This document shows positions 564 through 30,700 of a stretch of 47,500 nt of DNA, piece after piece. Location of the stretch: IMG/VR virus record IMGVR_UViG_3300037264_002141, positions 1 to 47,500 of that record. One strand, written 5' to 3'. The stretch's first letter is position 1. Every line of letters starts with the position of its first letter. The notes under the pieces are model-generated. The model was not told where the DNA came from and did no database searches. It was given only the letters and a program-made list of their open reading frames with translations. A program made the position numbers and the translations under genes. Source of the stretch: a virus (lineage: Duplodnaviria > Caudoviricetes).

Positions 564-1568
564 TTACGCGACGGTCGCTTCGTTCTCGAGGAGCGCGTCG
601 CACTTGTTGATCGGGATGCCCCGGAACGTCGGGCGCATGACCCCGTCAATGTTCTCGAAGGTGAAGCCGCCGCCCGACCCGACGTCGTCGCGGCGTTGAA
701 TGTCCATCATCTCGTAGCAGGTCCGGTTCATGTAGAACGCGGGTTTGCCGAGACCGAGGGCCGGGATCCGGTGGATCGCCTTGATCATCAGCTCCGTGAG
801 ATCCGCCGCGCTCACCTTGGCGACGAGGTTGCTGATGTCGATGTTGCAGATCCGGACCGCATACCGCCAGTCCTTGAGCACGAGCCCCGCCTTCCACTGC
901 CACCGCTCCTGGAGCGCCCGCATCCGCGAGCCGGCGATGCCCGCCGTCATCTCGACGGTGACTTCGCCGTAGTCCTCATGAATGAGCCCCGCCTTCGAGC
1001 CCTTCGGGAAGATCCCGACGACGGTGTTTTCACCCCAGACGATGAGCCAGATGCTCGAGTTGTCCGATCCGACTCCGCCCCCGCTGAGGACGTGCGAGCC
1101 GTTCGTCGCCCCGGCGATGGCCGAGTAGCGCGGCGCCAAGCCGAGGAACTCCTCCGGCGCGAGTCCGCTGTTCCCAAGGAACAGGGTCGACGCCATTTCC
1201 TGATTCATCGCTTCGAGGAACGCCCGCGCTTCGGAGAGCCGGAACGCGGCGACGTTGCCGTTGAGGATCGCGAGATCCTTGTCGACTTCTGACCACGCCT
1301 CGAGCATGCCCGCCTGCTCGTCGACCTGCGCGGTCGTGCTCTTCGACGGTGTCACACCCTGGTTGAGCAGACGCCAGGCGACGGTCGGGAGGCCGGTCCG
1401 GATCGTCGTCCGGTGTCCGGTCGGGAGGTTGCCTTCGATCCACCGCATGTCGGTGAGGATCTCGTTCGTCTGGCTCAGCAACTCGACAATCGTCGGGACC
1501 TTCCCGTCCGGGTCGAGCCGCTTCGCCCAATCGGCGAGCGTCAGCGCGCCGATGCTAAGTGCGGCCAT
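564..1568 (-). CDS. Major capsid protein (HK97 fold; BPP-1 Bbp17/epsilon15 gp7 family)
   Basis: TLADWAKRLDPDG..IVELLSQTNEILTDM.WIEGNLPTGHRTTIRTGLP and terminal FRGIPI..CDALL.NEATV are family hallmarks. Confidence 0.95.
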   Translation of the reverse strand: MAALSIGALTLADWAKRLDPDGKVPTIVELLSQTNEILTDMRWIEGNLPTGHRTTIRTGLPTVAWRLLNQGVTPSKSTTAQVDEQAGMLEAWSEVDKDLAILNGNVAAFRLSEARAFLEAMNQEMASTLFLGNSGLAPEEFLGLAPRYSAIAGATNGSHVLSGGGVGSDNSSIWLIVWGENTVVGIFPKGSKAGLIHEDYGEVTVEMTAGIAGSRMRALQERWQWKAGLVLKDWRYAVRICNIDISNLVAKVSAADLTELMIKAIHRIPALGLGKPAFYMNRTCYEMMDIQRRDDVGSGGGFTFENIDGVMRPTFRGIPINKCDALLENEATVA

Positions 1569-3437: not shown

Positions 3438-5165
3438 CTACTGGCCGCCCATGCCGGCCACGACCCGGTCAAGGGCCGAGTCGGTCCCCATCTTCGCCTG
3501 GCTCGCGCGTTGCAGCGCCGTCGCGACCTGTGTCGCCTGCTCGGCCTCTGCCTGTGCCTGCGCCGCCGCCGCCTGCGCCGCGAGAATCTGATCGGCCTCT
3601 TCGTCGGTGCGAATGATCTTCGGGTTGACGCCGAGCATGTCCCCGTAGCTGTTCACGACGGCTTTCATGTTGATCTTTGCGCGGACTTCCGGGTCCTCCG
3701 CCATCGGGAACAGGGATTGCAACAGGCGGTCCTGACCCGTCACGCCGACGAGTTTCTGCGCCTGGCTCAGAATCGAGAGATACTCCGCCTTGACTTGCAC
3801 ACCTTGCAACTCCGGCGGAGGCAGGAGATCGTCGTCGCTAAAGAAGCCGCTCACGAGCATGAGGTCGAAGACGCGATCGATGAGCGGATCGAGCAGTTCG
3901 TCGTTGGTCCGTTCGAGCACCGGCCCGAGAGCGATCAGCTTCTCCTCGTGGCGCTCCTCGACTTCCCGCGCGGTCACAGGTTGCTGACCACGGAACGGGT
4001 CGGAGGTCCCGAGCATGAGGAAGAGGTCCTCGAAGAATGCGCGCTTGATCCGATACTCCACCGCTTGGATGTCGAAGGCGAGATGCTGCAGGTTGAGCGA
4101 CACGTCATACATGGACCGCACGCCCTGCATGCCCTCCCGCACGTCGACATAGGTGATGTCGCCCGGGAGTGTGCTCGTCTTCTGGGTCCGCAGAGAGGTC
4201 GGGCCGACGACCGGCGGATCGACCATCTTCGCCAGGGCCTGGCCCTTGCGGCGTTCCATGATCTGGAGCTGCTTGACGTCGCCGAGCGCGTCCATGCCCG
4301 GGCAACTCGTGCCGTAACTGTCTTCTCCCGTGACGTCCCACCGCGGCGCCATGATCGGAAAGACGCGGAACCCGGACTCTCGCAGGAACTTCCCTTCACT
4401 CGAGCCCGTCTCGAAGTGGCAACTCGCCCACGGCAGGTATTTGGCCGCGAGCCGCGTCGGGTCGGCCGCTTCGTTCGGCAACACGATCCACGTCACGTCG
4501 ATCGCGCTCTCGTAGTCTCCGCCCTCCCAGAGGTTCCGCACCGTCGTCGAGATCGTCGTCCAGTCGATGTCTCGCCCGTTCGCCTGCAGCCCGAACTCCT
4601 CGACGATCTGCCGCACCGTGAGCTGATAGTCACGGACGAACGTCGTGACCCGCCCCCGGCGATCCATCCCGAGCGCGTAGCTCCCCACCGGGAATTGGAG
4701 CGCGCGGAACAGCTCGACGTTGTCCTCGACGATCGCCATCGCGCCCGTCGCGAAGACCGCCATGTCGCCATAGACAATCGGGAGGACGTTGTAGAGGTTT
4801 GAGACGGAGAACAGCGTGAGCATGCGCTGCGTGACCTGGTAGAGCCAGGCTTTCACCGGCGGATGCTCAGCGAGGTCGGTGTCCGGCGTCGTGAGTTTCA
4901 GCCAGGGACGCGCCGGCGAGGTCAGGCCCGCGTGCAGCCCGCTCTGGAGCGTGCGCGCGGCGAACCGGCCCGTTGAATTGATGATGTTCTGGTTCCGCTT
5001 GTCGCCGCGGTTGCGATCGCCCGTCCAGAACCGCGTGCGTCGCGGGAAGTAGAAGCTCGCCAGCTCCTGCCAATGCGCGTCGAAGGTCGACCGTTCCGTC
5101 CAGAGGGCAGCCCGGAGCTGCTCGTAGCGGTTGCGCTTCGTGACGGCGTCGACGTAGACAGGCAT
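3438..5165 (-). CDS. Portal (head-tail connector) protein, Bbp21/T7 gp8-like
   Basis: LQSGLHAGLTSPARPW, YGTSCPGMDALGDVKQLQ, TAREVEERHEEKL..LGPVLER..ELLDPLIDR; 575 aa. Confidence 0.95.
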   Translation of the reverse strand: MPVYVDAVTKRNRYEQLRAALWTERSTFDAHWQELASFYFPRRTRFWTGDRNRGDKRNQNIINSTGRFAARTLQSGLHAGLTSPARPWLKLTTPDTDLAEHPPVKAWLYQVTQRMLTLFSVSNLYNVLPIVYGDMAVFATGAMAIVEDNVELFRALQFPVGSYALGMDRRGRVTTFVRDYQLTVRQIVEEFGLQANGRDIDWTTISTTVRNLWEGGDYESAIDVTWIVLPNEAADPTRLAAKYLPWASCHFETGSSEGKFLRESGFRVFPIMAPRWDVTGEDSYGTSCPGMDALGDVKQLQIMERRKGQALAKMVDPPVVGPTSLRTQKTSTLPGDITYVDVREGMQGVRSMYDVSLNLQHLAFDIQAVEYRIKRAFFEDLFLMLGTSDPFRGQQPVTAREVEERHEEKLIALGPVLERTNDELLDPLIDRVFDLMLVSGFFSDDDLLPPPELQGVQVKAEYLSILSQAQKLVGVTGQDRLLQSLFPMAEDPEVRAKINMKAVVNSYGDMLGVNPKIIRTDEEADQILAAQAAAAQAQAEAEQATQVATALQRASQAKMGTDSALDRVVAGMGGQ

Positions 5166-6684: not shown

Positions 6685-6776
6685 GTCGTTCTCCTTACCG
6701 CGGCAATCCTACCAGGAACGCGCGGACCTTCTCTTCCTCTCTCCGGTGCCCATGATCGCCGCGTCGAGTCGCTCAT
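6681..6776 (-). CDS. Possible 31-aa peptide
   Basis: ATGA overlaps with both the terL stop and the next start; no recognisable homology. Confidence 0.3.
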   Translation of the reverse strand: MSDSTRRSWAPERGREGPRVPGRIAAVRRTT

Positions 6777-8272
6777 GTAGTTCCATCGCTGTCTCCTCTT
6801 GTTGTCCACGGGTCGAAGCCTGGCTGGTCCGGCGGCTCCTCCGCCGGCAGGACATACGGGTCGAAGTCGTGTGACGCCTTCTGGATCTTCTTGAGGCGCT
6901 CGATCACGTCGCCCGGCATATCCTCGAGGGCGTAGGTCAAGAAATACGCGTCGGCCAGGTCGGGCGAGCGCCCGAGCCGTTCCTTGATCTGGTCCTTCTC
7001 CTCGAGCTGGAACACGCCGTTGACGAACGTGTAGGTCGGTTCGGTCAGCTCCCCAATCATGTCCGGCAAGGGTGGGAGCGCGGCGCCGCCGCGGATCGCC
7101 TCGGCGCCCTTGATCCACATTTCCGCGCGCCTGTTCCGATACCGCGGGTTGAGTGCCCGACCGGCGAAGTTGATCCCGATCGCTGGGATCCCAGCCGTGA
7201 TGAGGTTGTCGATGACGCCGTGTCCCCAATGCCCGGTGTCGTCGATCAGCTCCAGCTCCGAGCGCCAGCGCCGCTTACACACCATGATCCGCGCCGCGAT
7301 GTCCGTCGTCCGCGCGTTCCGCATGATGATCGGCCGGAAACTCGCGAGCCCCTGCCGCGGGAAGATGACCGTCCGATCGTCGCCGAACCTGGCGACATCG
7401 ACGCCGAGCCGTCGCTGCGCCCAGGTGTATTCATCGTCGCGTAGGTGTCGCTGCATCGCCTTCTCGACTTCCTCGAGGCCGAGTAGCGCGTTGATGCTCG
7501 AAGGCGGGAACTCGCCGAGCACGTTCACCATGACCCACGGGTTGTCTCGACCGTAGGCGGCGATCTGCTCACGCGCCCACTGGAGCGCGATGCGGGACGA
7601 TCGCTTCGGGTTGTCCGGGTCCCCTGTGATGGTGATGACCTCCCAGAGACCGCGGTCCAGGTTACACGCCCGATAGAGCGGGCCGGTGGTGTGCGTCGGG
7701 TTGCCGGCTTGGACGACCTTGGCTTCACTGCCCGCCGTCGAGAGGACGGCTTCCGCCGTGACCATGACCGCCTGCGGGATCCCGCCGCTCTCGTCGAGGA
7801 CGAAAAGAACATGATCCGCGTGCAGTCCGGCCAGAGCGTCGGCCTGCGCTTCCGGATCCCCACTCTTCGGCCAGGACCGTTTGACCGCGAACCAGTTAGC
7901 CGGCGAGGCCCGGCGCGCGATCGTCGTGCGCGACCAGACGAACGTCTCCGACAGCAGCGCCGAGCGACTCATCCACTTGTTGCACTCCGGCCAGAGGTTC
8001 GTGTCGATGTTGGCTTCCGTGATCGACGTGGCGCCGACCTTGGCCTGCCAGCGCGTGAGGAGAAACCAGAGGATGATCCACGCGAGGAGCGTCGTCTTGC
8101 CGGGACCCTTGCAGGCTTTCAGCGCCAGGCGGCGCGTCGACCGCTTCGCAATGAGATGGAGCGCGTCGTCTTGCCAGGCGTCCGGCACGACGCCGAACAA
8201 CTCGCGCACCATGCGCCAGGGCTCGCGGCCCCAGCGGGCGATCTGGCCGGTGACATACTCCCGCTCGGTCAT
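6773..8272 (-). CDS. terL: Terminase large subunit
   Basis: Walker A ACKGPGKT, Walker B FVLDESGG, GNPT coupling motif, nuclease motifs LGVDVARFGDD and SPDLADA. Confidence 0.95.
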   Translation of the reverse strand: MTEREYVTGQIARWGREPWRMVRELFGVVPDAWQDDALHLIAKRSTRRLALKACKGPGKTTLLAWIILWFLLTRWQAKVGATSITEANIDTNLWPECNKWMSRSALLSETFVWSRTTIARRASPANWFAVKRSWPKSGDPEAQADALAGLHADHVLFVLDESGGIPQAVMVTAEAVLSTAGSEAKVVQAGNPTHTTGPLYRACNLDRGLWEVITITGDPDNPKRSSRIALQWAREQIAAYGRDNPWVMVNVLGEFPPSSINALLGLEEVEKAMQRHLRDDEYTWAQRRLGVDVARFGDDRTVIFPRQGLASFRPIIMRNARTTDIAARIMVCKRRWRSELELIDDTGHWGHGVIDNLITAGIPAIGINFAGRALNPRYRNRRAEMWIKGAEAIRGGAALPPLPDMIGELTEPTYTFVNGVFQLEEKDQIKERLGRSPDLADAYFLTYALEDMPGDVIERLKKIQKASHDFDPYVLPAEEPPDQPGFDPWTTRGDSDGTT

Positions 8273-8970
8273 GTGACCGCCACGTCCCGAAGCATCGGGA
8301 GCGGTTGCTGCCGAAGGCGTTCCACGGCTTCGGCACAGTATCGCTCTTCGAGGTCGATCCCGATGACTCTCCGGCCAAGAGCGGCCGCAGCGTCAAGCGT
8401 CGAGCCTCCGCCCATGAACGGATCGACAACAAGGTCTCCCGGTTGTGTCGTCAAGCCGATCAGTTTCATAAGTAAGCCCCGCGGTTTTGAGACGGGGTGT
8501 CTGCGTTCAGATCTCGGCGTCGGTGTGAACCGCAGGATGTCACTCTCGCCCTTCGAACCATACCAGGACGACTCTAGCGCGCGGCCGTGAATCACGAACT
8601 CGTGCGTATGTCGCCAGGGATTCCCCATGCCGATGCGCCCCTTGTCCCACACGAGCGCCGACAGAGCAGCGAATCGCACATACAGAGGCGGATAGAACAC
8701 GGGATAGCTTTCATCGTCACAGAACACAAAGACGTTGCCAGTCGCCATCAGCCGTGGTCTGACGACATCTAGAAAGAGCGCCCACCATCGCGCGAGAATT
8801 GACGTGTCGGCCCAGGATCGCGGCCACTCCGACCGGGCGGCATAGTGCTGCGCCGGCATGAAAAACGCAGGATCTAGGATCATCGTCGCTGACAAGGGTA
8901 GGTCCGGAAGCAGGTCGAGGGCGTCCCCGTGGTAGATCGTGATCCCGCCCTGCTGGTAGTAAGGCGTCAC
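8269..8970 (-). CDS. Beta-class amino (N6A/N4C) DNA methyltransferase with atypical motif IV
   Basis: IYHGDALDLL, DPAF in place of DPPY, HPVSKP, VVDPFMGGGST, IGIDLEERY. Confidence 0.85.
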   Translation of the reverse strand: MTPYYQQGGITIYHGDALDLLPDLPLSATMILDPAFFMPAQHYAARSEWPRSWADTSILARWWALFLDVVRPRLMATGNVFVFCDDESYPVFYPPLYVRFAALSALVWDKGRIGMGNPWRHTHEFVIHGRALESSWYGSKGESDILRFTPTPRSERRHPVSKPRGLLMKLIGLTTQPGDLVVDPFMGGGSTLDAAAALGRRVIGIDLEERYCAEAVERLRQQPLPMLRDVAVT

Positions 8971-9197
8971 GGCTCGATGACCTCATACTCGACGCCGTTG
9001 ATGACCCGGATCTCAGGCGGCGAGTGGGGTGTCTCGCGCCAGCGCAACGTCTCGACGTGAGCGTTTCGCGCACGTGACCGATCGCCCTCTCCCCTGGCGC
9101 AGCCGGTGCAAAGCCCATGCGAGACCTGCGCCCATCGGCTGTGACACTTCCGGCACCGTCGCGCCGCCGGAATCGGGCCGGTCCTCCTGCGGGTCAT
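8967..9197 (-). CDS. Small zinc-finger protein
   Basis: CRKC...CTGC; coupled overlaps on both sides. Confidence 0.6.
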   Translation of the reverse strand: MTRRRTGPIPAARRCRKCHSRWAQVSHGLCTGCARGEGDRSRARNAHVETLRWRETPHSPPEIRVINGVEYEVIEP

Positions 9198-9781
9198 TCC
9201 TCCACCGCCTGGCCGTGGCGGGTGAGGTCCGCCCGGATCGCGTCCGCCAGGGCGTCGATGCTCTCGCCCGGGCCGCGGAGTTTGCCGGTCTGTTCGAGGA
9301 TCGTTCGCAGCGCCGCGTGCGGGCTCTCCACGCTCACCTTGAGCCCATACGGGCCGTCCTGCACAGACCGCACGACGCCGACGATGCTATCCGGCCAGTC
9401 GGCCACGTTGAGCAGCGCCCCCTGCTCGTCGTAGAGATCCCGCACGTCGAAGGCTGCGATCTGAGCGATGCGTGCGAGGGCCTGCTCGCCGTCCATCTGC
9501 CTACTCTTCCAGATCGGCTCGAGGCGCTTCGCGAGCCACTGCCGCACCTTGGGAATATTCAGACTCTTCGAGGCGGCCACGTCTGCGGTCCGCAGACTCG
9601 CCTTCGGATGCGCCTCGAGGTAAGCACGCCGGCCGTTGAAACCGTTGCGGAGGTAACTCGTCGCGAAGACCCGCTGGGCCGCAGTCAATACGGTCGGCGA
9701 CGTTCCGGACCGCCGGCGCGTTTTCGGTGTCGGCGCGCTCAGCTCTCCCGGATCCGCACGATGGGACTTCCGTCTGGACAT
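9194..9781 (-). CDS. terS: Terminase small subunit
   Basis: LTAAQRVFATSYL.NGFNGRRAY..A..AASKSL..PKVRQ HTH, then IAAFDVRDLYDEQGALL...WP; upstream of terL. Confidence 0.85.
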   Translation of the reverse strand: MSRRKSHRADPGELSAPTPKTRRRSGTSPTVLTAAQRVFATSYLRNGFNGRRAYLEAHPKASLRTADVAASKSLNIPKVRQWLAKRLEPIWKSRQMDGEQALARIAQIAAFDVRDLYDEQGALLNVADWPDSIVGVVRSVQDGPYGLKVSVESPHAALRTILEQTGKLRGPGESIDALADAIRADLTRHGQAVEE

Positions 9782-9972
9782 AACCCGACCTGTTCTAGTG
9801 GCGCCTCAAAGACGGCGCACCGATGTTCTCGCCCGAGGGCGGTCTCGAGGCGGCCACCTGGCCCGCCATAGAGTCCGGGGTAACCACAAAAGGCACAGGT
9901 CTCCGGGCCGACCGCGGGCCGGTCGTGATAGGGGTCCTGCCCATAACACTCATCGTCAGGAAGCTGGCACAT
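9739..9972 (-). CDS. Small Cys/His-rich hypothetical protein
   Basis: CAFCG...HRC; GAGGA RBS before ATG 9972. Confidence 0.5.
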   Translation of the reverse strand: MCQLPDDECYGQDPYHDRPAVGPETCAFCGYPGLYGGPGGRLETALGREHRCAVFEAPLEQVGLCPDGSPIVRIRES

Positions 9973-10034
9973 CGCGACGCGTCCTCACGTGAAGAGGCCC
10001 TTGATCGCCCGCCAGATCCACCGGAAGAATCGGA

Positions 10035-10442
10035 TCAGCGGATGACCGGCCGGCCCTGTTGGAGGGGAACCAACTGAAAAGGGGCGCTCGCCTCCGACCA
10101 GGGTGAGACGAAGACCCCAGCCTTCGCCAGGACTTTATACACGAAGCACCCGATGGCCGGCCTCGAGTGCAGGAGCTGCTCGACGTCCCCGTCCGGCCGG
10201 AGCCCTGGCTTCCCGAGATCCTCCCGCTGGAGGGGCTCGGCCGGGATCGTCGTGGCGTCACACGTCCCGTCCCCCCGCACCGCGATCGCGAAGTAACCAC
10301 CCTCGAAGGACGTCACGATCTCGTAGTCCATCGGCGTGAACCGCACGCCTGTCGGATTCTTGACCAGCTCCTGTGCGCTAGCGACGGACCCGATGATGAG
10401 TCCGATCGCCAGCGCCAGAAGCATCCGCAGCAGTGTTCGCAT
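10035..10442 (-). CDS. Secreted beta-sandwich (FN3-like) protein; candidate -1 frameshift isoform ends at 9985
   Basis: Sec signal MRTLLRMLLALAIGLIIGSVASA, two Cys, YKVLAKAG...SPWSEAS FN3-like end; in-frame C CCT TTT at 10083-10077. Confidence 0.75.
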   Translation of the reverse strand: MRTLLRMLLALAIGLIIGSVASAQELVKNPTGVRFTPMDYEIVTSFEGGYFAIAVRGDGTCDATTIPAEPLQREDLGKPGLRPDGDVEQLLHSRPAIGCFVYKVLAKAGVFVSPWSEASAPFQLVPLQQGRPVIR

Positions 10443-10451
10443 GACGCCCCC

Positions 10452-10721
10452 CTACCAGGTTGTGGTGACCGCGACGTCGGCACTGACGCCGCCCGCCGCA
10501 TACCCGATCGAGCCCATCACATACCAGCGTTTGTAGAGCCGCTGGACGAGCAGGAGATCCGCTTGTGGCTTGCCCTGCGCGTTGTAGGACCCGGCCAGGA
10601 TGAGCGCGCCCCGCTGCCCTTCGGGGATCGCATACGCCGCTTGCCGGAGGCGTTCCCAGGTCTCGCCGGTCAAGGAGACCGGCTTGAGCTGAGTCGGCAT
10701 GATGACGGGCGGGTCAGCCAT
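10452..10721 (-). CDS. Small protein with amphipathic beta-strands and terminal Trp
   Basis: ADLLLVQRL..RWYVMGSIGY..GGVSADVAVTTTW; lies between the holin and the secreted protein. Confidence 0.6.
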   Translation of the reverse strand: MADPPVIMPTQLKPVSLTGETWERLRQAAYAIPEGQRGALILAGSYNAQGKPQADLLLVQRLYKRWYVMGSIGYAAGGVSADVAVTTTW

Positions 10722-10722
10722 C

Positions 10723-11079
10723 TCAGGCTCCCGGCCGCCGAAGCAACACCGCCGCCGGGGTCTTCGTCGCCTCCGGCGTCTGCACGGCGACGCGGTAGAT
10801 CACCTTCTGGCTCACGATCTGCACGATGTAATGCCAGAGCGCCGTGGCGATGCCGGTCAGCGTCAGGCCCGTGACGAGCAGGGTCCCCTCGCTCGGCGTC
10901 CACACGTAGCCGATGCCGGCAACGGCCAGGGCGCCGAACACCAGCGAGAATAGCCACTTCACGCGCTTGGTGCTCTCGTCCGTGAGCCAGATAAACCAGC
11001 TCTGCTTTTTCAGCCACTCGAGCAGGAAGACCACGACCGCCGCGCTGCCGAGTTGATCGACGAGTAGATTCGGATCCAT
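10723..11079 (-). CDS. Putative holin (about 3 TM segments)
   Basis: Hydrophobic segments AAVVVFLLEWL, WLFSLVFGALAVAGIGYVW and LLVTGLTLTGIATALWHYIV; GGAGGAG RBS before ATG 11079. Confidence 0.7.
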   Translation of the reverse strand: MDPNLLVDQLGSAAVVVFLLEWLKKQSWFIWLTDESTKRVKWLFSLVFGALAVAGIGYVWTPSEGTLLVTGLTLTGIATALWHYIVQIVSQKVIYRVAVQTPEATKTPAAVLLRRPGA

Positions 11080-11122
11080 GTCTCTCCTCCGTGTTAGGTG
11101 TCGGTGTGACTGTGTGACTGCA

Positions 11123-11461
11123 TCATAGCCCATCCCAGCGCCGGCCACGATGACCAGGCCGGGACTCGTGCGAATCCTCCCGCGCTGGTTCCTGCCAGCC
11201 GGCGGCCCGCGCGTCACCGATGACGCGACGGAACGCGCGCTCATACGTCCCGGTCCCATACTTCCAGCCGTAGCGGCGCACCTTGAGGAGTTCGTCCTCC
11301 TCGAGGGTGAGCGTGCCCTCCGGGTCGGTCACGCGCCTGAGCAACAGGCGGATGAGGTCCTGCGGGCCGCCGGTCTTCTCCTCTGCCTGGCTCGCGGTCT
11401 GCAGCGCCGTAAGCGTGTCATCCCGCAAGGTGAAGGTGAACGCCGGAACGAAGAGACTCAT
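11123..11461 (-). CDS. Conserved hypothetical protein (GGxQ...RY...YGxGxYE family)
   Basis: TGGPQDLIRLL..LTLEEDELLKVRRYGWKYGTGTYERAF; ATGA-coupled to the upstream nuclease. Confidence 0.6.
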   Translation of the reverse strand: MSLFVPAFTFTLRDDTLTALQTASQAEEKTGGPQDLIRLLLRRVTDPEGTLTLEEDELLKVRRYGWKYGTGTYERAFRRVIGDARAAGWQEPAREDSHESRPGHRGRRWDGL

Positions 11462-11946
11462 ACCGCAACCTGCTCGTGCCACAGCGCGGCGAATTGCCCG
11501 TGCCCCTCGAACATGCGATGCCATGAAAGGGACCGCACCTTTCCGCCTGGATAGTGCCGACCGACGTAACCACCTCCGTCTCGAAGGTCAAAACACTGCT
11601 TGATGTGCTGGTCGGCGGTCAGTAGTTCGCTCGCCAGGAAATACGCGACGGCCCGGTGCTCCACGACCACAAAGGCGAACACATCGACCGATCCAGCCTC
11701 GAGGCGCCGAACTCCGCCCCGTGCACGACGAAGGTTGAAACGGTAGACGCCCCTCGCCCGTCGATAATCCTTCGGGCCAGCGGTCGCCTTGACCTGGACC
11801 CGCCATCGCTGCCCCTTATAGTCAGCAATGAGGTCATACGGCAACGCACCTCCCACCAGAAACGCAGGGATGCCTTGCACGATGAGGTCAGCGATCACGA
11901 GATGCTCCGCTGCTCGTCCGACTTCATGCGCCCGCGACACGTTCAC
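11458..11946 (-). CDS. PD-(D/E)XK endonuclease (PDDEXK_5/homing-type)
   Basis: GRAAEHLVIADL..G....PYDLIAD....RVQVKAT; GGGAGG RBS before GTG 11946. Confidence 0.8.
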   Translation of the reverse strand: MNVSRAHEVGRAAEHLVIADLIVQGIPAFLVGGALPYDLIADYKGQRWRVQVKATAGPKDYRRARGVYRFNLRRARGGVRRLEAGSVDVFAFVVVEHRAVAYFLASELLTADQHIKQCFDLRDGGGYVGRHYPGGKVRSLSWHRMFEGHGQFAALWHEQVAV

Positions 11947-12934
11947 GGCGTTCCTCCCTTGTCGCGTCCTCGACCCATCGCTGTGGGTCGGTTCCGAGCA
12001 TCGTCCAGCCTTCCCACGGGCCATGGTAGCCAATGGCGAGCTTCGGCGCGTGTGGATAGAGACGCTCGATCATCCGACGAAACTCGTCGGGCTTCTCCGC
12101 GTCGAACTGACTGCGCCGAATGACCTGAACAGAATCACAGACGGCGTTCGGCACTTCTGGGGGACATTGGCCACGTGTCGCCACCAACAGATGCACGTGT
12201 CGAATGTTCGCGAAGACGCCACCGCAACCAAGCACCCCATCCCAGACTAACCCTGTCATGTAGCCGTAACTCCACGCGGCGAGAACGGACGAAGCCTCTA
12301 TGAGTTTCGACGGAGGCACCCAGAGAAAGAGCACGGATCCTCTCTCGACGTGCGCGGCGATCGGCCACTTGGCGATCTCGGCCGGATCGGTCGCTTCCCA
12401 ATCCGGATCCGCATACACGACCCGATACAGCCCCTCGAGGACGGCCTGGCCTTCGATGATGCGCCGGCGCCGCGAGGCGCGCAGCTCGAGCCGCAGCTCC
12501 CGGACGTTCCAACCGTGCTCGGCGGCCTTGTCGAGCCAGCGTGTCTGTTCCGCGGCTGACAGGGCCGCCACGGCTTCATGAATCCCGAACTCGAGATCGC
12601 CGCGGCGGCGGTCCTGCTCGATCGCCGCGACCGCCCGCACGTTCTTGAGCGTCTTCTCCGCCAGGCCCGTGTCGTTGATCGCTTGGTCGATCCGGTCTTG
12701 CCAGTCCGTCCGGCTGTCGCCGTAGCGCAACCAATCGCCGAGCCAGAACCCGGAGGCGTGGTGTGCCCGTTGAATGAAGTCCCCGACGCCGACGTGCTGC
12801 TCATAAGAAGGCCGGCCCCGAACGACAAGGCTGGTCTCCATGAGCGTGTAAGCGCCGATGACGATGGGCTGGATCGCCGGCACGTGCACGGCGCGCCGCA
12901 TCCGTCCCGACTGTCGGGATATGAGGCTTGGCAT
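11924..12934 (-). CDS. LmbU-like DNA-binding domain fused to a degenerate MT-A70 methyltransferase domain
   Basis: N-half SGFWLGDWLRYG...HEAVAAL..EQTRWLDKA...WNVRELR; C-half YRVVYADPDW, VLFLWVP, HLLVATRG, KPDEF..MIERLYP. Confidence 0.75.
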   Translation of the reverse strand: MPSLISRQSGRMRRAVHVPAIQPIVIGAYTLMETSLVVRGRPSYEQHVGVGDFIQRAHHASGFWLGDWLRYGDSRTDWQDRIDQAINDTGLAEKTLKNVRAVAAIEQDRRRGDLEFGIHEAVAALSAAEQTRWLDKAAEHGWNVRELRLELRASRRRRIIEGQAVLEGLYRVVYADPDWEATDPAEIAKWPIAAHVERGSVLFLWVPPSKLIEASSVLAAWSYGYMTGLVWDGVLGCGGVFANIRHVHLLVATRGQCPPEVPNAVCDSVQVIRRSQFDAEKPDEFRRMIERLYPHAPKLAIGYHGPWEGWTMLGTDPQRWVEDATREERRERVAGA

Positions 12935-20463: not shown

Positions 20464-21468
20464 TCAACCCTCTTCCCCAGGTTCCCGCCCGACCACGATC
20501 GGGAGCGGACCGGGATGTTCGATCGCCGCGCAAATCGTTTCATAGAGGTCCGTTGTAATCAGCTTCGAGCTGGTGAAGCCGAGACTCTCGAGATAGGCTT
20601 TGACCTCCGCGTCGGACCGGCCGCGGCTCCGGATGATCGTCCAGAGTCGTTTGACGCGCGCTTCTGAGATCGCCTTACCGCTCGTGCTGTGATGGCTGGC
20701 GGGGGGGACCGCCCGCGCCGGCGCGACGGGCTCGCTGGCATCGACCGCTCGCCGGCCCGTCTGGATCTCATTCCAGAAGGGCGCGTCCGTCTTGCGGCGG
20801 ACGAACCACTTGACTTTCCGCTGACCGTCGCGCTCCGTCTCCGTCTTCACGCGCACGCAATGCTCGGCGATGAACATTTCACCGAACGACCGCTCCCACA
20901 GCTCGAGAGCCAGGCCGAGATGTTTGCAACAGCGCCGGAGTCCGCTCGCAACAGTGCTCTCGAGCGCGTCGCCATAGCTTTGGTCCGGGTTGTTGGCGAA
21001 GTAGTCCTGTTCGCCGAGGGCGAAGGCGAGCGGTTTGCCATGCACGAGTAGGAGGTAGGGCACGACGACGCTGTTGTTGTTGATCAACGGTTTACTGGCC
21101 GGCCGCAGCGCCCAACCCGTGCGACCGAAAGCCCGATTGAGCCAGCGGGTGTAGACGATATGAGGCAGGTAGACCTGGCCGGTCGGTTTGACCCGGATGT
21201 CCTCGAGCCGCACCGGCTCACTGAGCACGGCCTCCTCTTCGCGCGTGAACTTGACCTCGACGAGCCCGAAGTCCCCGAGCTGGATCGCGTCGTCGAGCAC
21301 ACCTCCGCTCGTGAGGGCCTCGAGGCGCTTGATCTGCCGTTCGAGGTTCTCCTCTGTCTTGACCGGCCGCCGAGCCGGCAACAGTCGCCGGCTGACTGGC
21401 ACGCGCCGGCGCACGACGAGCGCCGTCGACGGCTTCCGCGCCGCGGGTTTCTTCCGCTTGTTTGTCAT
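20464..21468 (-). CDS. Rad52/Sak-superfamily single-strand annealing protein, Mgm101-like
   Basis: VKPTGQVYLPHIVYTRWLNRAFGRTGWALRP, ALGEQDYF, ALESTVASGLRRCCKHLGLALELW. Confidence 0.85.
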   Translation of the reverse strand: MTNKRKKPAARKPSTALVVRRRVPVSRRLLPARRPVKTEENLERQIKRLEALTSGGVLDDAIQLGDFGLVEVKFTREEEAVLSEPVRLEDIRVKPTGQVYLPHIVYTRWLNRAFGRTGWALRPASKPLINNNSVVVPYLLLVHGKPLAFALGEQDYFANNPDQSYGDALESTVASGLRRCCKHLGLALELWERSFGEMFIAEHCVRVKTETERDGQRKVKWFVRRKTDAPFWNEIQTGRRAVDASEPVAPARAVPPASHHSTSGKAISEARVKRLWTIIRSRGRSDAEVKAYLESLGFTSSKLITTDLYETICAAIEHPGPLPIVVGREPGEEG

Positions 21469-22215: not shown

Positions 22216-23817
22216 CTATTTTGAGACGAGCAGCCAGGCGCCGGCACCCTGCTCGAGGCGCACCGTCGCGCCCGCCTCGAGGGTATAGGTCTTGCTCTCC
22301 CCGGCAAGCAGCGGGCGCAACTCGAAACTCATCGGCCAGGCGGCGGTGAGTTGGACGTAACTCTTGACCCCGACAACCGCCGTCACGAACGCTGAGGCGC
22401 GCGTGGCCGAGTAGACGCGGACCGCGCCGTGATCGGGACCGTCCGGCCAGAGGGCGTCAACCGTGAACGGACTCCCGACCCAGCCCGAGTTTTGCTTCGA
22501 CCAGTTCGCCAGGTCGGGCGGGAGGGCCGCAGTCACGGCGGCCAGACCGGCCAGGGTGTCGGCCAGACCGGGCGTCTCCCACAGGTTCGCCGGGATCCCG
22601 CGACTGGCGCCGGACGCGCCGCCGCCCCAGATCCCCGGACCGGCGTGAATGACCGACAACGGCAGGCCGGCGATATGCGCCACGAGCGCCTGCGCGACAA
22701 GTCGCGTCGGATCGCGCTCTTCGGCAACGGAACTATACGGACCGATCGGTTCGTTGCTGTCGCCGGGCGGGAGCCAGTCACACGGGAACTCACCCGGGAA
22801 CCCCCATGGTTGACGCACGGGGCGCCAGAACCCGTCGACGAGGCGCGTCTCCCGGTCAAAGTGGATCGTCGCCACGTCGGCGACGCCGTTCCAATAGAGC
22901 AGGCAGAACTCGTCGAGATCCTCGTGATAAGAGGACGCCGCCACGAGGATACCCGTCGCGTCGTTCGCTCGTCGTGTGAGTGCGCGCAGTTCGGCCAGAC
23001 CCGCTGACCCGCCGAAGCCAGTTTGAAACCCCTCGTTCGCGATCTCGAGGAGGACGATCTTTTCTTCACGGCCGCGACTCATCGCGAGAACGCGGTCGAC
23101 GAGCTGCACCCGCTCCGCCGCGGTCTCCGTGAAGTCGACCCCACCGAAGACGGTCCACTCGATCCGAAGGCGGAACTTATCGAAGGCCAGGTCGGTCAAG
23201 CCGGCCAGGGCCGCGTCATAACCCTCAGCGTGCGGGTCGACGGCCCGGTCCACCCACCACGGCCCGCCGACTGTCGCGAGGACGCGCACGTGATCGATCG
23301 CCCCACTGTCTGCCAGATACGCGAGGTTCTCCTCGAGACGGGCGCGATCGTGCTGATACCCCCAAAGACCCCAGAACAAGGTTGCGCCGTGTCCGAGGAA
23401 ATGCCCGCCATCGTCACGGAGAGCGCGGCCTTCGAGGCGCACCACCCCGCGACGCGCCGACACCGCCGGCGGCAACGACAGGGCGACGCGGACCTCGAGG
23501 CCAGGCAGGGCGTCGATATGTTGGTCGGCCGAGACGTAACCGGCCGCGCTCACGAAGACGTGCGAGTCGGTCAGACTGGCCGGCACGACGAAGACGGCAC
23601 GCCCGGAGACGTCAGCGACCTCACTGAGGGCATCCGCCGGCGTCGCGCCGGTGATCCAGTAGCGGACCAGCGCCCCACCGATGGCCGCCTGGCTCGTGGC
23701 GTCGACGACCGCGATCGTGACAAGCATCACACTCGGGGTCGGCGCCGGCGTCGGGGGGATCGGCGCGCACGCGCTGAGAAGGAGGAGCGCGAGAGCCAGC
23801 CAGGAACGTGGTCGCAT
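22216..23817 (-). CDS. Lipoprotein with Ig-like domain and putative clan GH-A glycoside hydrolase barrel
   Basis: Lipobox LLLLSA/C, Pro-Thr linker, beta-sandwich (VSAAGY), then DHVRVL, EIANE, TIHFDR, SNEPIG. Confidence 0.65.
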   Translation of the reverse strand: MRPRSWLALALLLLSACAPIPPTPAPTPSVMLVTIAVVDATSQAAIGGALVRYWITGATPADALSEVADVSGRAVFVVPASLTDSHVFVSAAGYVSADQHIDALPGLEVRVALSLPPAVSARRGVVRLEGRALRDDGGHFLGHGATLFWGLWGYQHDRARLEENLAYLADSGAIDHVRVLATVGGPWWVDRAVDPHAEGYDAALAGLTDLAFDKFRLRIEWTVFGGVDFTETAAERVQLVDRVLAMSRGREEKIVLLEIANEGFQTGFGGSAGLAELRALTRRANDATGILVAASSYHEDLDEFCLLYWNGVADVATIHFDRETRLVDGFWRPVRQPWGFPGEFPCDWLPPGDSNEPIGPYSSVAEERDPTRLVAQALVAHIAGLPLSVIHAGPGIWGGGASGASRGIPANLWETPGLADTLAGLAAVTAALPPDLANWSKQNSGWVGSPFTVDALWPDGPDHGAVRVYSATRASAFVTAVVGVKSYVQLTAAWPMSFELRPLLAGESKTYTLEAGATVRLEQGAGAWLLVSK

Positions 23818-23826
23818 GGAGAACTC

Positions 23827-24339
23827 CTAGACGTTGACGGGTGTCGCGCCTCGAGAACCGGCCGGACCGACCTGTCGTGTCCAGCCTTCATCCCAGAGCT
23901 TCGGCCACGTGCAGGCCCGTGGTGTGCCAGGACGCCAGGTCGCCAGGTAGATCCGCCAGGCGACGTCTGCTTGATTCTGCGCGGGAAGCGCGTCTGGATG
24001 CGTGAGGAGGAGACACCGGGCGAGGAGGGCCGCCAGCATGTCGTTGTGTTCGATCGCTTGGAAGGTGTCCGCTGGCGACATCTCGGGCGGATACCGGAGC
24101 GACAGGAGCGCGTTGCGGAAGACCCGACTGGCCTGCGGATGATAATGGACGCCGACCACGCCCGCCATCTCAAATTGCCAGAACCCGCGCGCCGGCCCGC
24201 GCTGTTGCTTCCGATCGAGGAAGCGCGACTCCTGCAGACCGATCGCGGTAATGAATGCCGCAGCTTCGACCGTTGCGAGTCGCACCGGGAGCACCGTGAA
24301 GGCGGCCGGGATGATGTAGCGGACGATTTGGTCGATCAC
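23827..24339 (-). CDS. Putative endolysin (lysozyme-like fold)
   Basis: AIGLQESRF..RKQ..GPARGFWQFE, HND.LAA..AR, AWRIYL.TWRPG.P; GTGA-coupled to the upstream membrane protein. Confidence 0.75.
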   Translation of the reverse strand: MIDQIVRYIIPAAFTVLPVRLATVEAAAFITAIGLQESRFLDRKQQRGPARGFWQFEMAGVVGVHYHPQASRVFRNALLSLRYPPEMSPADTFQAIEHNDMLAALLARCLLLTHPDALPAQNQADVAWRIYLATWRPGTPRACTWPKLWDEGWTRQVGPAGSRGATPVNV

Positions 24340-24683
24340 GTCTTGCTCGCGTGAAAGGGACAATTGTTGATCTCGTCCACCACGTGCGTCAGGGCGGCCG
24401 TGACCTTTTCGACGAGAGCCATCAACACCTGGTTTCGGGACTCTTCTTCGTGAAGCAGGCGGGCCAGGTCGCGGCGATACGACCAGAGCGTGCCGAGCAG
24501 GCAGATCGTCAACCCGCCTTGTGTGAGGACCCACTTCAGGAACTCCGACTCGAATCCTCCGACACTAGGCGTGACCTGAGCTGCAAGGACCCCGTTGACG
24601 CTCAACAGACAGACACAGGCGAGACTGAGCGGCCCGCGCAGCCAACGGGCGACGCGACGGAGGCGGGGCATAGTTCGACTCAC
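24336..24683 (-). CDS. Holin/antiholin-like membrane protein
   Basis: Two hydrophobic segments plus a C-terminal coiled coil; directly precedes the endolysin. Confidence 0.55.
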   Translation of the reverse strand: MSRTMPRLRRVARWLRGPLSLACVCLLSVNGVLAAQVTPSVGGFESEFLKWVLTQGGLTICLLGTLWSYRRDLARLLHEEESRNQVLMALVEKVTAALTHVVDEINNCPFHASKT

Positions 24684-25740: not shown

Positions 25741-27714
25741 CTATGACGCCGGCCCTGTGGCCGAGACGTGGACGTTGCCTAACGCATCGCAGATCAGATA
25801 CTTGTCTCCGGCCGCGAACGCACCGAGAACACTAATCGTGACAAGTCCGGTATCACTAATCCGGAACCGTTCGAGATTTGTGGTGCCAAAGACAAGCGAA
25901 TAAGCCCTATTATTCTTGAACCACAGGTCCCCATCGACTGTTCCAGTGAGTCCGTGGTCGTTTGCGAAAGCAGCACCTACTGAACCCGCAGGCGCCACTG
26001 CATCCGTATCATAGAATGTCACTTGTGGGCTGAACGCCCCTGCTCCTGAAATCCGTAATCCTCCGCCCGCCGCAATCGCGACAAGTTCTAAGGTCGTTGC
26101 CGGCAGTGTGGTGCCAATCCCGACGAAGCCTCCAGTCGATTGAAGAATGACATAGCTTGTGGTCTTTGTCCCGCTGGAGGTCCCTTCAATCGTGATGTCG
26201 CCGTTCGCGGCGGATGAGCCGTAAATCGTCGGGCTCAGAAGGGCGCCTACGAAGCTGTTGACTCCGACATTCGTGAATGCGTTCGCGGCATCGAGCCTCG
26301 GGACATTCGTCGAGGACGAGATCGCCGTGCCTCCACCCCAGGCGAGCGTGCCTGTCGCCGTGAGGACCAGCCAATCACTGCCGCCACCTTGAATCCGGAA
26401 GTCAGTCGAGGACGCCGGCACGTAGAGGTTCCAGGTGAGGTTATAGGAACCGCCGCCCTCGTCGCGTTGCAGCGCCGCCTGCACGATGTTGTTGGTCGTC
26501 GTCTTCAGCCAGAGCCACGTCGAGCCCGCCACGGTGATCTGCTGGTTCGCCAGGAAGGTGTTGCTCGCGCTCAGTCGGGCCAGGTCCGCCGTATCAGAAA
26601 GGTCCGTCGAGGCGTGCGACGCAAGGTCCGCGATCGAGGACCCGACCTTCGAGACGTCGGCCCAGGCGTGACCGTGTGCGGCAGCCGCGGCGCCGACGTC
26701 GGCAAACGTGAGGCCGTGGACCGCGAAGCCGAACGTCGTCGGCGTGAGCGCTTTCAGGAAGTGGCCGGCGGTCAGTCCGGCCGCACTATGGTCCGCCCCG
26801 ACGAGCGCATGCACCTGCGCGTGATGTTGGTCACTCGTGACGTCGGTCAAGCCGGCGTGTTGCCGCGTCGCGAGGTCGGTCAGATTCGATCCGACCTTGC
26901 TGACCTTGCCCCACGACAGGGACGGAATGTCATCCTCGACGAGCGCGCGGAACGTCGGCACAGCCGCAGCGCCGGCCGCCGGGCCGGAGAAGATCAGATT
27001 CGGCGCCTGGGAGATCCACGTCGCGGCCAGTGTGCCGGTCGACGTGACCGGCGATCCGCCGATACTGAATTGTGGCGGTAGGACGAGCCCAACGCTGGTC
27101 ACCGTGCCGAGTCCCGTTGGGAGATCGCTGACCGCGATCTGGCGGAAGGTCGCGGCGCCGTCTGCACCCGCGAGCGGACCCGCCAAGAAAACTCCGGCCT
27201 CCTGGGCGGCCCAGAGCGCACTCAGCCGGCCCGCGACGTCGCCGCGAAGAATCTGATAGGTGACGGCCACTTTCCGCGGCACCGGGAAGGCGCACGACCA
27301 CATGACCCGCATCCGCCTTCGATCGACAATCCGCGCCACGAACTGCACGATGCCCGCTTCGGCCTCGTCACCGCCTGCCGTGGCCATCTGGGTCATGACG
27401 ACCGGCGCGCCGATGTCCGCGTCATCGAACCGGCCGGCTGACCAGACGACACCGCTCCGTCCACCAGCACGCAACTCGAGATCTGCGGTATGGATGGCGA
27501 GACTGGTCAGGGCGTCAACGGCGTCCTCGAGCGCCCCGACGCGCGCCTCGAGTGGTTGGACCTGCGTCGTCGCGATCCCTAACACGATTGAGGTCGACAG
27601 ATCGGTCCCGTCTTGTTTCCGGATCGGAATGTCGACCTTGCGACTGCGACCCGCGGGCGCGCCGGTCGTGCGCCGTGGTTCTTTCGCGCGGCCGGACGGG
27701 GCTCGCGGCGGCAT
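25741..27714 (-). CDS. Tail fibre/receptor-binding protein
   Basis: Internal repeats (AGP..GA...TFR.....D.P x2, W..VSKVGS...DLA x2, RL.A.N.F x2), HxH knots, VGIGTT.P and GTTNLERFRI fibre motifs; TAATG overlap with the giant gene. Confidence 0.85.
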   Translation of the reverse strand: MPPRAPSGRAKEPRRTTGAPAGRSRKVDIPIRKQDGTDLSTSIVLGIATTQVQPLEARVGALEDAVDALTSLAIHTADLELRAGGRSGVVWSAGRFDDADIGAPVVMTQMATAGGDEAEAGIVQFVARIVDRRRMRVMWSCAFPVPRKVAVTYQILRGDVAGRLSALWAAQEAGVFLAGPLAGADGAATFRQIAVSDLPTGLGTVTSVGLVLPPQFSIGGSPVTSTGTLAATWISQAPNLIFSGPAAGAAAVPTFRALVEDDIPSLSWGKVSKVGSNLTDLATRQHAGLTDVTSDQHHAQVHALVGADHSAAGLTAGHFLKALTPTTFGFAVHGLTFADVGAAAAAHGHAWADVSKVGSSIADLASHASTDLSDTADLARLSASNTFLANQQITVAGSTWLWLKTTTNNIVQAALQRDEGGGSYNLTWNLYVPASSTDFRIQGGGSDWLVLTATGTLAWGGGTAISSSTNVPRLDAANAFTNVGVNSFVGALLSPTIYGSSAANGDITIEGTSSGTKTTSYVILQSTGGFVGIGTTLPATTLELVAIAAGGGLRISGAGAFSPQVTFYDTDAVAPAGSVGAAFANDHGLTGTVDGDLWFKNNRAYSLVFGTTNLERFRISDTGLVTISVLGAFAAGDKYLICDALGNVHVSATGPAS

Positions 27715-30700
27715 TACTTCGCCCCCTTCACCTTCGGTCCGAACAGGACAGCCGCCGGACTCGTCGTCCGTCCTTCTTCGAGGGCGATGACGCCCCGCAC
27801 GGTCCGCTCGACTTGGGCGGCCGGATACCGGAAGACGATCCCGCCGGTCTGGTTGATGGACTTGAAGAATGCCTCGTCGAGTTCGCCCTGCTTCACCTGT
27901 GTCCCGGTCTGATAGGCGAGTTGGAGGAGCCGCGCGCCGGCCGGACCGGCATACCCGCGGGTCCCGTCGCCGACGAGACCACCCAGCTCGCGCACGAGCA
28001 CCATGGTGTTGAGCGCCGTTGAGAGGATCTCCTGCCCGACGTTCTTGACGAACTCCACCCACGAATCATCATCGTCACCGCCCGTCCGGCCGAAGGCCCG
28101 ACTCATGGCGATCGTCAGGAACGCCGGCATGACATAGATGAGGCTCAGGTTCCCGAGCATCTCGAGGACTTCGACCGGCGATCGATAGTTCGTCTTCCCC
28201 AACTCACGGGCCGTCTGGTTGAAGACCGTATTCCCGTAGGTGTAGAACACCATGAAGAGGCGCGCCACCGGACCACCGCGTTGCACTTGCGCCAGATCCT
28301 TGAGTTGGCCGGCGCCCTGGCTGTCGAGGACGGCTTGATCGGCCAGGGCGATCGCTTCCGCTTCGGTCCCGCCGCCAGCCTTCGTCTTCTCATACATGCC
28401 GAGCCAGGTCGGCACGTCGGCGACGCGTTGCGCCAGACCGATGTGGAACATATACCCGTCGAGCAGCGCCGTCTGCGTCAGGGTGTCGAACGAGACTTTG
28501 CGGACGAGGCGATCGAAGAAGCCGCCGGCGCGACGCAGCTCGAGGCGCAGGTCGCTCAGATCTTGCGTCTGCGTGTAGAGCCGATACTTCATCATCGGCG
28601 AGACACTGTAGATCCATTTGATCGTGCTCTCGAGGTGCGCCGCGTCGCGGAGCCACCGCTTGATCCCCCGGGCCACCCACACCGGGCCGACCCGCGCCAT
28701 GCCGTTGAACACGCCGAGCGGTTGCTGGACCGCCGTCCACAGGTTGAGTCCGAGCACGGAGAGCTGCGTGCCCTGGCGGGCGAACGTCGCGGCCCGATCG
28801 AGAATCGTCGCGCGTCGACCGTTGATGTTCCCGAGGGCGATGTCCTGCAGCATGCGGGTGAATTGCTGATAGACAATGTCCCCCTTCGTCTCGAAGATCG
28901 CGTTACTCACGCTCGAGTCCCTCAGGATCCGCTGCGCGTCGAGGAGCATCTCGTGATGCGTGAGGTCGTGCAGCACTTGCTGGACGTGTTGGAACACGAC
29001 GCCCAGATCGAGCCGGACGGAGAGCTTCACGTGGGCCTTGCGCGTTTCGATATGCCCGCGTTTCGTGGTGTTGGAGACATACGCGGCTTGCAGGATCCCC
29101 CGGGCTTCACTGGCCGCCTCGAGCTGCTGCGATCGCAGGTTGAGCCGCGGGTCATACATGAGCGGATAGTAACCGCCGCGGTAGTCGCCGAAGGCCGTCT
29201 GCACGGTCAGGGCCTCAACCTTCTCCGGGGCCACGCCGACCACGCGCTCTTGTTTCGCGACGATCTCCGGCCAGAACCCGTCGAGGAAGTCCCACGTTGC
29301 TTGAACGAAGTCCCAATCGCGCTTGTCGAGCGTCTCGAGGATCGCCGCAACCTGCTGGAGTCCCCACTTGCGCCGCGGGTCAGCCAGGATCCGATCACGC
29401 GACGTTTGATTCCCCCAATTGAGCGCGAGGGAGAGGCGCGCCTCTTTCGAGAGACTCGCGCCGATGGCTGGGATGAACCGCTGCGTCGCGAAGTGGCTCA
29501 GATCCTTCGAGGTATAGAAGCGTTCGAGGATCGCCGTGTAGGCGCCGCCGGCCTCCGCGTTGCGGCGCGTCTCGGCGTCTGTGGCGTCGTTGATTGGCTT
29601 GATGATGTAGCGCCACATCGGCCCGCCGTCGACGTAGCCGTCGAGCGCCGCGGCGAGCTGGGCGATCTTCGTGTGCGACGCGAACCAATCGCTCGCGCGT
29701 CGTGTGACTTCGTCCCCCGCCGTGAACTCGAGCGGGAGCGGGCTGACCTTGCTGTGCGTGCGGATACTCTCGACGATCGCCGTGCGGACCTCGGCGAACT
29801 CGCGCTCGTCCTGTGCCTTGAGCAGCTTATTCTTGAGTCGGGCCAGATGGACGATCATCTTGAGCCCGTCCGTGATCCCGACCAACTCCTCGACGGTGAG
29901 GTTCTGGTAGTTCGTCCGGCGCGCTTCGTCCTGCAGCTCCACCGGCAGGGCATCAGGCACCGGGAGGCCGGCCGCCTCGAGCCCGGCCAGGAACTTCGCC
30001 AGACTCCCGCGGCGCTCGAGCGCCTTCGCCGGCACACGCGCGAACTCATACGCGTCAAGGATCCCGTCGACTTGATCCTGGTAGTTCTGCCCGGCGAGTC
30101 CCAGCCGCGCCCGCGACGCCTTCGAGTTGAGATCCTTCGCGAACCTGACCCGAATCGCGATGTCCTCCAGTGTCCGCTCGGCTTCGCGGTAGAGGGCCAG
30201 GTTGAGCAGTTCTTGCTGTTTGGCCGCGATCGCGCCGTCGAAATCCTGCCGGGCCGCGTGGTCGATGGCTTGCTGTCCCGCCCGCCTCGAGGCGGACCAG
30301 AACAGGGCCGGTTTGATCTGTCCGATCTTCATGCGGACGATCCGCGCCCGCGCCGTCCTCTGAATCAGGGCCGCCGGCGGGATGGCCGCGGCGATGACCG
30401 CCGGACCGCCGCGAGCCTTCTGCCGGAGGTTCCGCACCTCATCCTGTAGCTGGTCGATCTCGACTTGCTTCCTTCCGGTCGCGATCGCCACACGGAGTTT
30501 CCCTTCCGCCTCGAACCACCGCCGCTCATAGGCCCGTTCCCGCCGCTCAGCGGCGACCCGCTCCTCTCCAGCACGCTCGAAGGGCGCGACGGTCCGCTTG
30601 AGTTGCGTGAGGGCGCGCAGCTCGGCGCGGATGATACTGTCCCGATCCTCGTTCGCCACGGCGGCCTGCGCGATCTCGCCGAGTGTCCCATCGAGGAGCA

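Follow-up and report, generated by a model that had tools for sequence, protein, structure and literature searches.

Does the short minus-strand gene at positions 10035-10442 of this phage genome encode one protein or two? The initial annotation had proposed that some ribosomes slip into the -1 frame near the end of this gene and give a secreted protein a cationic amphipathic tail, which would act in lysis or envelope function and possibly replace spanins. The window, by which we mean the whole stretch of DNA analyzed (47,500 nt), is a complete virus record with terminal repeats. Its terminase is 49% identical to the best matches in GenBank. A contig of a sediment metagenome that may be the source of the window showed 0 differences and 0 gaps against window positions 9000-12000; it is not independent. 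The features needed below are as follows.

564-1568, minus strand: capsid gene (Pfam/PHROG scans)
3438-5165, minus strand: portal gene (Pfam/PHROG scans)
6773-8272, minus strand: large terminase gene (Pfam/PHROG scans)
9194-9781, minus strand: small terminase gene (Pfam/PHROG scans)
9972-9739, minus strand: next open reading frame, 77 aa, with ATG at 9972
9982-9986, minus strand: GAGGA ribosome-binding site of the 77-aa frame, 9 nt before its ATG at 9972; the TGA of the -1 frame overlaps it
9985-10038, minus strand, -1 frame: predicted cationic amphipathic helix of 17 codons plus stop, starting at a CTG that lies over the 0-frame TGA
10038-10076, minus strand: putative dual-coding stretch, with the family-type end in the 0 frame and a Pro/Gly linker in the -1 frame
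10048-10071, minus strand: weak imperfect hairpin (-8.1 kcal/mol), 5 nt past the heptamer
10077-10083, minus strand: in-frame heptamer C_CCU_UUU (third base of Ala120, Pro121, Phe122)
10091-10095, minus strand: GGAGG, Shine-Dalgarno (SD)-like, about 7-8 nt before the heptamer
10035-10442, minus strand: 0-frame gene of 135 aa, with a predicted signal peptide and one FN3-like domain
10374-10442, minus strand: predicted Sec signal peptide, residues 1-23 (A-S-A, then Q24), read from the sequence

The 0-frame product was characterized by searches and structure modeling. The signal-peptide segment forms a helix at residues 2-22 of the model, and A21 and the region of Q24 are conserved across the family. 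Word-based searches gave P0003 (70%), P0004 (64%) and P0005 (39%) as the closest proteins, and the first two have a 0-frame C-terminal end almost identical to that of the window protein. A profile run against 1.84 billion representatives returned 79 matches, mostly short signal-peptide proteins, and a wider profile returned 28. There are 95 distinct short family proteins. In 67 of the 85 that were parsed, the chain ends 13-14 residues past a conserved Phe, like the 0 frame, according to a tally made with a rough regular expression that misplaced some long cases. The same tally counts 39 other family members with Pro-Phe. Because most parsed family proteins end where the 0 frame does, the 135-aa product is the normal one and its end the family's normal, ancestral end.

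Pfam, PHROG and NCBIfam gave no name for the 135-aa protein, and the ESM Atlas gave no usable match for either the protein or the tail. The structure model built from 61 sequences reached a pLDDT of 94.6 and places the last beta-strand at residues 122-124; it supersedes an earlier model from 4 sequences (pLDDT 64.5). FN3 domains account for most of the top 50 structural matches. The best one (Z 7.5, rmsd 3.1, 83 aligned) is moderate and inside the range of common arrangements. Foldseek with the model found nothing at E 0.001 or better, and Pfam fn3 (PF00041) did not match the 135-aa protein and matched 3 of 61 family members (best E 0.017). We describe the protein as likely exported, FN3-like by its model, and a member of a small family of exported phage proteins. 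The signal peptide had been recognized in the initial annotation, which had overlooked the FN3-like fold and the ancestral nature of the 135-aa end. A lipobox-like Cys was read by eye in three family members (P0005, P0006, P0046), and two others (P0108, P0113) continue in frame beyond the last strand with an aromatic extension, so the family seems to have other membrane anchors too.

Heptamers of the form X_XXY_YYZ, with Y being A or T, occupy 4 of the 13,115 in-frame positions of the genome, and only from the one at 10083-10077 does the -1 frame stay open beyond the stop. After the slip the -1 frame reads 32 aa to a TGA at 9987-9985, which gives a fusion of 120 + 32 = 152 aa. The shift exchanges the last 13 residues for 30. 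No ATG, GTG or TTG is found in the -1 frame after the slip site; a CTG is present at 10038-10036, where it overlaps the 0-frame TGA. The heptamer at Pro121-Phe122, the open frame to 9985 devoid of the three usual start codons, the GGAGG, the TGA overlapping the GAGGA of the next gene and the product lengths of 135 and 152 aa (as reading frames) had all been reported in the initial annotation, and each was confirmed at its position; the CTG is our addition.

According to the accessible part of PMC4066793, H_HH.U_UU.Y heptamers are among the most efficient -1 shift classes measured in E. coli, C_CC.U_UU.U is listed with the motifs that give more than 0.10% shifting without stimulators, and SD-like words 6-17 nt upstream stimulate -1 shifting. 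Both a Shine-Dalgarno word and a hairpin had been put forward as stimulators here, and they fared differently. The spacing of the GGAGG falls within the published 6-17 nt; GGAGG at the same spacing was found at 42 of 1,500 random codons, whereas 336 of 1,500 had an SD-like word of some kind. Applying the hairpin rule of PMC4066793 (a structure 4-10 nt downstream) in our own implementation, we found no qualifying structure of 45 nt or less after the heptamer, although 685 of 1,500 random sites pass; a branched fold of 139 nt does qualify. The hairpin is indistinguishable from background and lends the frameshift no support.

The codons on either side of the 0-frame stop were then compared between frames. 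The 15 codons of the -1 frame after the stop have a codon adaptation index (CAI) of 0.89 with a reference of 32 hand-picked genes, a level reached by 56 of 841 real windows and by 0 of 1,275 stop-free off-frame windows. When the reference genes were picked automatically, 3 of 1,475 off-frame windows reached it. Here the -1 frame is the best of the three (base-shuffle p = 2e-5), for a region that was chosen after the fact out of a few dozen intergenic gaps. The tail carries a charge of +4. Its hydrophobic moment over 15 residues, 0.87, is the highest of the 72,939 windows with similar hydrophobicity across the six frames. In the 0 frame, codons 121-128 are rare (CAI 0.246), as low as in 39 of 12,726 windows; under a second gene set, 95 of 14,601 windows are as low. 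Such rare codons are as expected if a second coding constraint, from the -1 frame, acts on the same stretch.

Several simpler accounts of the open frame were considered and set aside. A +1/-2 shift would read a frame open to 9956, but its coding score is -0.6 against +12.7 for -1. Transcriptional slippage was rejected because the run consists of only four T, which is too short for it. An assembly error is disfavored by P0003 and P0004, which keep the 0-frame end, and by the sediment-metagenome contig, which has no indel. A gene broken by the loss of one base was ruled out, as the 0-frame end matches the family.

The DNA-level comparison comprised six other distinct family proteins, and the close homologues P0003 and P0004 were compared as proteins only. 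DNA of close homologues was not found in scans of viral sequences and genomes or by tblastn of five family proteins against GenBank phages. The lone metagenome-scan match (L001) was spurious, and two of the three codon-neutral pattern matches (L096, L098) were dropped as unrelated AT-rich genes. Three of the four Pro-Phe loci with DNA have C_CCU_UUY (the window, G043 and G009), and the fourth, G017, has CCA-TTC. Neither Pro-Phe nor the heptamer is present in G014, G042 and one protein common to G019, G021 and G034. Altogether, 4 of the 7 distinct family proteins with DNA are without the heptamer. Heptamer and open -1 frame are both kept in 2 of the 3 other Pro-Phe loci, a count that covers three loci only, all from distant relatives. 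Of 120 Pro-Phe pairs in the long open reading frames of five genomes, 2 were C_CCU_UUY, and the G009 family gene probably accounts for one of the two. The chance of at least two heptamers in three loci was estimated by hand from codon frequencies at p about 0.016; this value leaves out the discovery locus, assumes a preceding Asn and is described as conservative.

In G043, which was located by the codon-neutral pattern, C_CCU_UUC lies at the same Pro-Phe and opens a 32-aa -1 frame that has no ATG, GTG or TTG and continues beyond the stop as far as the next gene. Its end, LTRFACWIFR, is identical to the LIRFFRWIWR of the window at 6 of 10 positions. The score of this pair was reached by 6 of 12,864 random 16-mers, 56 of 5,570 30-mers and 244 of 20,000 shuffles; BLASTP between the two tails gave no alignment, and the codon bias of the G043 tail is not significant (206/1,183). 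An SD-like word (GGAG) lies 13 nt before the heptamer. In both the window and G043, the -1 stop overlaps the ribosome-binding site or start of the next gene. That next gene in G043 (L099:1814-2377, plus strand) resembles by eye a permuted papain-like amidase, with no match in Pfam and NCBIfam.

G009, located by the profile, has C_CCU_UUC with SD-like words 14 and 17 nt upstream. Its -1 frame stays open for 21 codons past the stop, with G or C at 19 of 21 third positions. This tail is non-amphipathic and has a borderline codon bias, equaled by 73 of 920 off-frame windows, and a GTG lies upstream in the -1 frame. In this locus (L107:1345 onward, minus strand), the -1 tail contains two Cys, and the 0 frame past its TAG also reads an Arg/Trp-rich stretch. 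The 0-frame codons past the site are rare in all three heptamer loci, the window, G043 and G009. In G017, which has no heptamer, the codons after Pro-Phe are rare as well (306 of 4,372 windows as low), so the rare-codon signal is partly family-wide. G017 also has an SD-like word.

We consider it probable from these sequence comparisons that C_CCU_UUU in the window is a programmed -1 frameshift site. Recoding is supported by the heptamers found at this Pro-Phe in 2 of 3 other loci, each with an open -1 frame, and by the codon-optimized, amphipathic tail. With somewhat less confidence, yet still leaning toward it, we favor an anchor role, in which the 135-aa form would be free and the 152-aa form of the same gene would be tethered to a membrane. 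With CCU in the P site and UUU in the A site, ribosomes would re-pair on CCC and UUU by tandem slippage of tRNA-Pro and tRNA-Phe, a slip stimulated by the upstream SD word. A minority of ribosomes would shift, so that most of the product stays in the free 135-aa form. In the shifted product, the Pro/Gly linker and amphipathic helix would take the place of the last 13 residues. The body of both forms would be exported by the Sec route, after which the helix would bind the inner membrane from its periplasmic side, as the PBP5 anchor does. The slip lies at the start of the last modeled strand (122-124), and the new frame opens with strand-compatible residues; from this position, both forms would keep the fold.

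The tail may instead be a separate micro-gene of 17 codons, coupled to the FN3-like gene by the overlapping CTGA and initiated at its near-cognate CTG, that makes a free cationic membrane-active peptide, with the heptamer being incidental. The -1 codon bias sets in at about the CTG, NTGA coupling is common in the window genome, and GTGA-coupled frames follow three distant family genes (of the G017, G014 and G019 types). The three close proteins all end in Arg, for which a CGG or CGA codon would supply a proper start in the relatives. However, CTG is a poor start codon and no SD word precedes it here. Moreover, the heptamer and its recurrence are left unexplained, and the similar tail of G043 comes after a TAA, with no overlapping start and no ATG, GTG or TTG. 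On balance we regard a micro-gene as unlikely. In G014 (L032:6601-6711, plus strand), which is without the heptamer, the GTGA-coupled frame after the family gene encodes 36 hydrophobic residues and is possibly a separate membrane partner.

A real frameshift could also produce a tail that is not a membrane anchor. It would then be a protein-binding or turnover tag, or it would mainly serve to deliver ribosomes to the start of the next gene. G009, with its heptamer and non-amphipathic tail, fits such a role, as does the -1 stop lying over the ribosome-binding site or start of the next gene in the window and G043. On the other hand, the hydrophobic moment of the window tail is the highest of the genome, and G043 retains the Arg/Phe/Trp pattern, which mere coupling would not require. 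We give this alternative a low probability, and continue to prefer the membrane anchor.

The distribution of the gene bears on its function. The closest phage, G001 (terminase 81%), has both upstream genes and the small terminase in common with the window, and carries an unrelated gene in the FN3 slot. The family profile matched 8 of 43 and 0 of 39 records. Among records selected by their terminase, 6 of 80 have the family gene, and 2 of 24 among the near-complete ones; two records chosen for carrying the gene were left out of the 6/80, and fragments cannot show absence. The neighbors of the family gene differ in each phage. We class the FN3-like gene as accessory. A circular relative of 47,628 nt in run X2 diverges from the window across 9796-10447, with 1,051 different letters there, and may carry another allele of the accessory slot. 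The 77-aa frame at 9972-9739 has no relatives among the 85 loci searched. Upstream of the FN3-like gene, a 119-aa membrane protein is followed one base later by a beta-rich, Trp-ending protein of 89 aa (10723-11082 and 10452-10721, minus strand). They are present in G001 at 62% and 59%, with no other match among the 85 loci, and neither received a family name.

A further reading is that nothing is recoded and that the tail is what is left, untranslated, of a small gene whose start was recently lost. The heptamers would then have arisen by chance. In its favor, the region is an accessory slot, with a different gene in G001 and a diverged insert in the X2 relative, and the comparison loci are few. 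Such a remnant requires the coincidence of a rare heptamer, an SD word, an intact optimized frame and, at the same two codons, two more heptamers, and we judge it quite unlikely.

The lysis role put forward in the initial annotation was that the tailed form disrupts the outer membrane and replaces spanins like gp28 of phiKT, which is described in the available part of 10.1101/515445 as a free 56-aa peptide that complements the loss of spanins. The tail is indeed cationic (+4) and amphipathic. Pfam and PHROG scans (43 and 42 open reading frames) name no spanin, a lipobox scan gave a single lipoprotein, of 533 aa, and the 119-aa membrane protein, whose role is not assigned, lies two genes upstream of the FN3-like gene. 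Against this, the FN3-like gene is not in G001 or in 74 of the 80 terminase-selected records (22 of the 24 near-complete ones), and its neighbors vary. The likely holin and endolysin genes are at 24336-24683 and 23827-24534, which places the likely pair 13 kb from it; the endolysin candidate matches PHROG 3108, where its function is not named. A 17-aa helix on an exported FN3 domain is not a free 56-aa peptide, and a minor recoded form would be a poor route to a bulk disruptor. Finally, a need for spanins would depend on the host. We find a spanin-replacing disruptor very unlikely. The recoding part of the initial proposal thus held up, with the heptamer in 2 of 3 other Pro-Phe loci and a codon-optimized amphipathic tail, whereas its lysis part did not, the gene being accessory and 13 kb from the likely lysis pair. 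The comparison with gp28 failed for want of a stand-alone peptide of about 56 aa, as the tail consists of 17 codons on or after an exported FN3 gene. The 533-aa lipoprotein (22216-23817, minus strand) lies directly after the likely holin-endolysin pair and is not in G001, which is also without a match to the endolysin candidate of the window.

The gene product is most likely not a core lysis protein. Its architecture weakly suggests an accessory envelope protein that binds a component of the host envelope, for example in receptor masking or remodeling of the infected-cell surface, with a fixed free-to-tethered ratio. In a more general form, the family, a widespread one, would have a reusable -1 switch in the last beta-strand (C_CCU_UUY at Pro-Phe) that bolts exchangeable tails, here a membrane anchor, onto some of the molecules; this we propose tentatively, at slightly less than an even chance. 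If true, it would be a recoding counterpart, at the host envelope, of the secreted and membrane-bound antibody isoforms.

The predicted system was compared with known ones, as far as the cited sources were accessible. Like bacterial -1 frameshifting in dnaX and IS911/IS3 (PMC4066793), it has an efficient-class heptamer, an SD-like word 6-17 nt upstream and two products per gene. Unlike those systems, it has no convincing short 3' hairpin, and an exported protein would have its C-terminus exchanged. The accessible part of that paper names common IS motifs, and C_CCU_UUU is not one of them. In phages, frameshifts extend virion proteins with Ig-like/FN3 domains, as in the T3 coat, Lactobacillus A2, Listeria A118/A500/PSA and SPP1 gp17.1* (PMC5009743, PMC8718954). 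The likeness consists of a phage gene, a 3'-terminal slip, short and long isoforms and an FN3/Ig fold. In the virion systems, however, a capsid or tail subunit gains an Ig domain through the slip, whereas here the FN3 domain is the body, preceded by a signal peptide, and the slip would add a short helix. By Pfam/PHROG scans the FN3-like gene is neither a capsid nor a tail gene, and its extension is a 30-residue linker plus helix.

The closest parallel for the anchor itself is the periplasmic PBP5 of E. coli, tethered by an 18-residue C-terminal amphipathic helix (PMC2909392). Both have a signal peptide, a folded periplasmic body and a terminal amphipathic helix of 17-18 residues, which is predicted here. 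The PBP5 anchor is constitutive and in frame, and PBP5 is an enzyme, which is not the case here; homology is not claimed. With phiKT gp28 (10.1101/515445), the likeness is a phage-encoded cationic amphipathic helix, but gp28 stands alone with 56 aa and here a 17-aa tail sits on the exported domain of an accessory gene. The tail chaperone of phage 9g slips -2 on CCC followed by seven U (PMC4276943). The window site likewise has CCC and then a U run, of only four U, and its -2/+1 frame is without coding bias. A literature search that covered few subscription journals found no case of a frameshift giving an exported phage protein a membrane tail. Documented phage frameshifts are mostly in tail chaperones and virion Ig extensions, and setting the free-to-tethered ratio of an exported protein differs from these uses. 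The locus offers a natural test case for C_CCU_UUY, with the whole signal within a 130-nt cassette, and gives access to a family of exported phage proteins, about 95 in number, that lacks annotation. Gene callers overlook such isoforms.

Other observations concern the rest of the genome. Two DNA methyltransferases (N6_N4_Mtase, MT-A70) and a PD-(D/E)XK nuclease are encoded near the packaging genes (8269-8970, 11458-12033 and 11924-12934, minus strand). A recombination protein that is Mgm101-like (PF06420, E 5e-38) is encoded at 20464-21468 on the minus strand. A virion-region protein of 3,439 aa (27714-38033, minus strand) has ART-PolyVal and LPD22 domains, and its gene contains two in-frame G_GGA_AAG heptamers whose -1 frames are soon closed.
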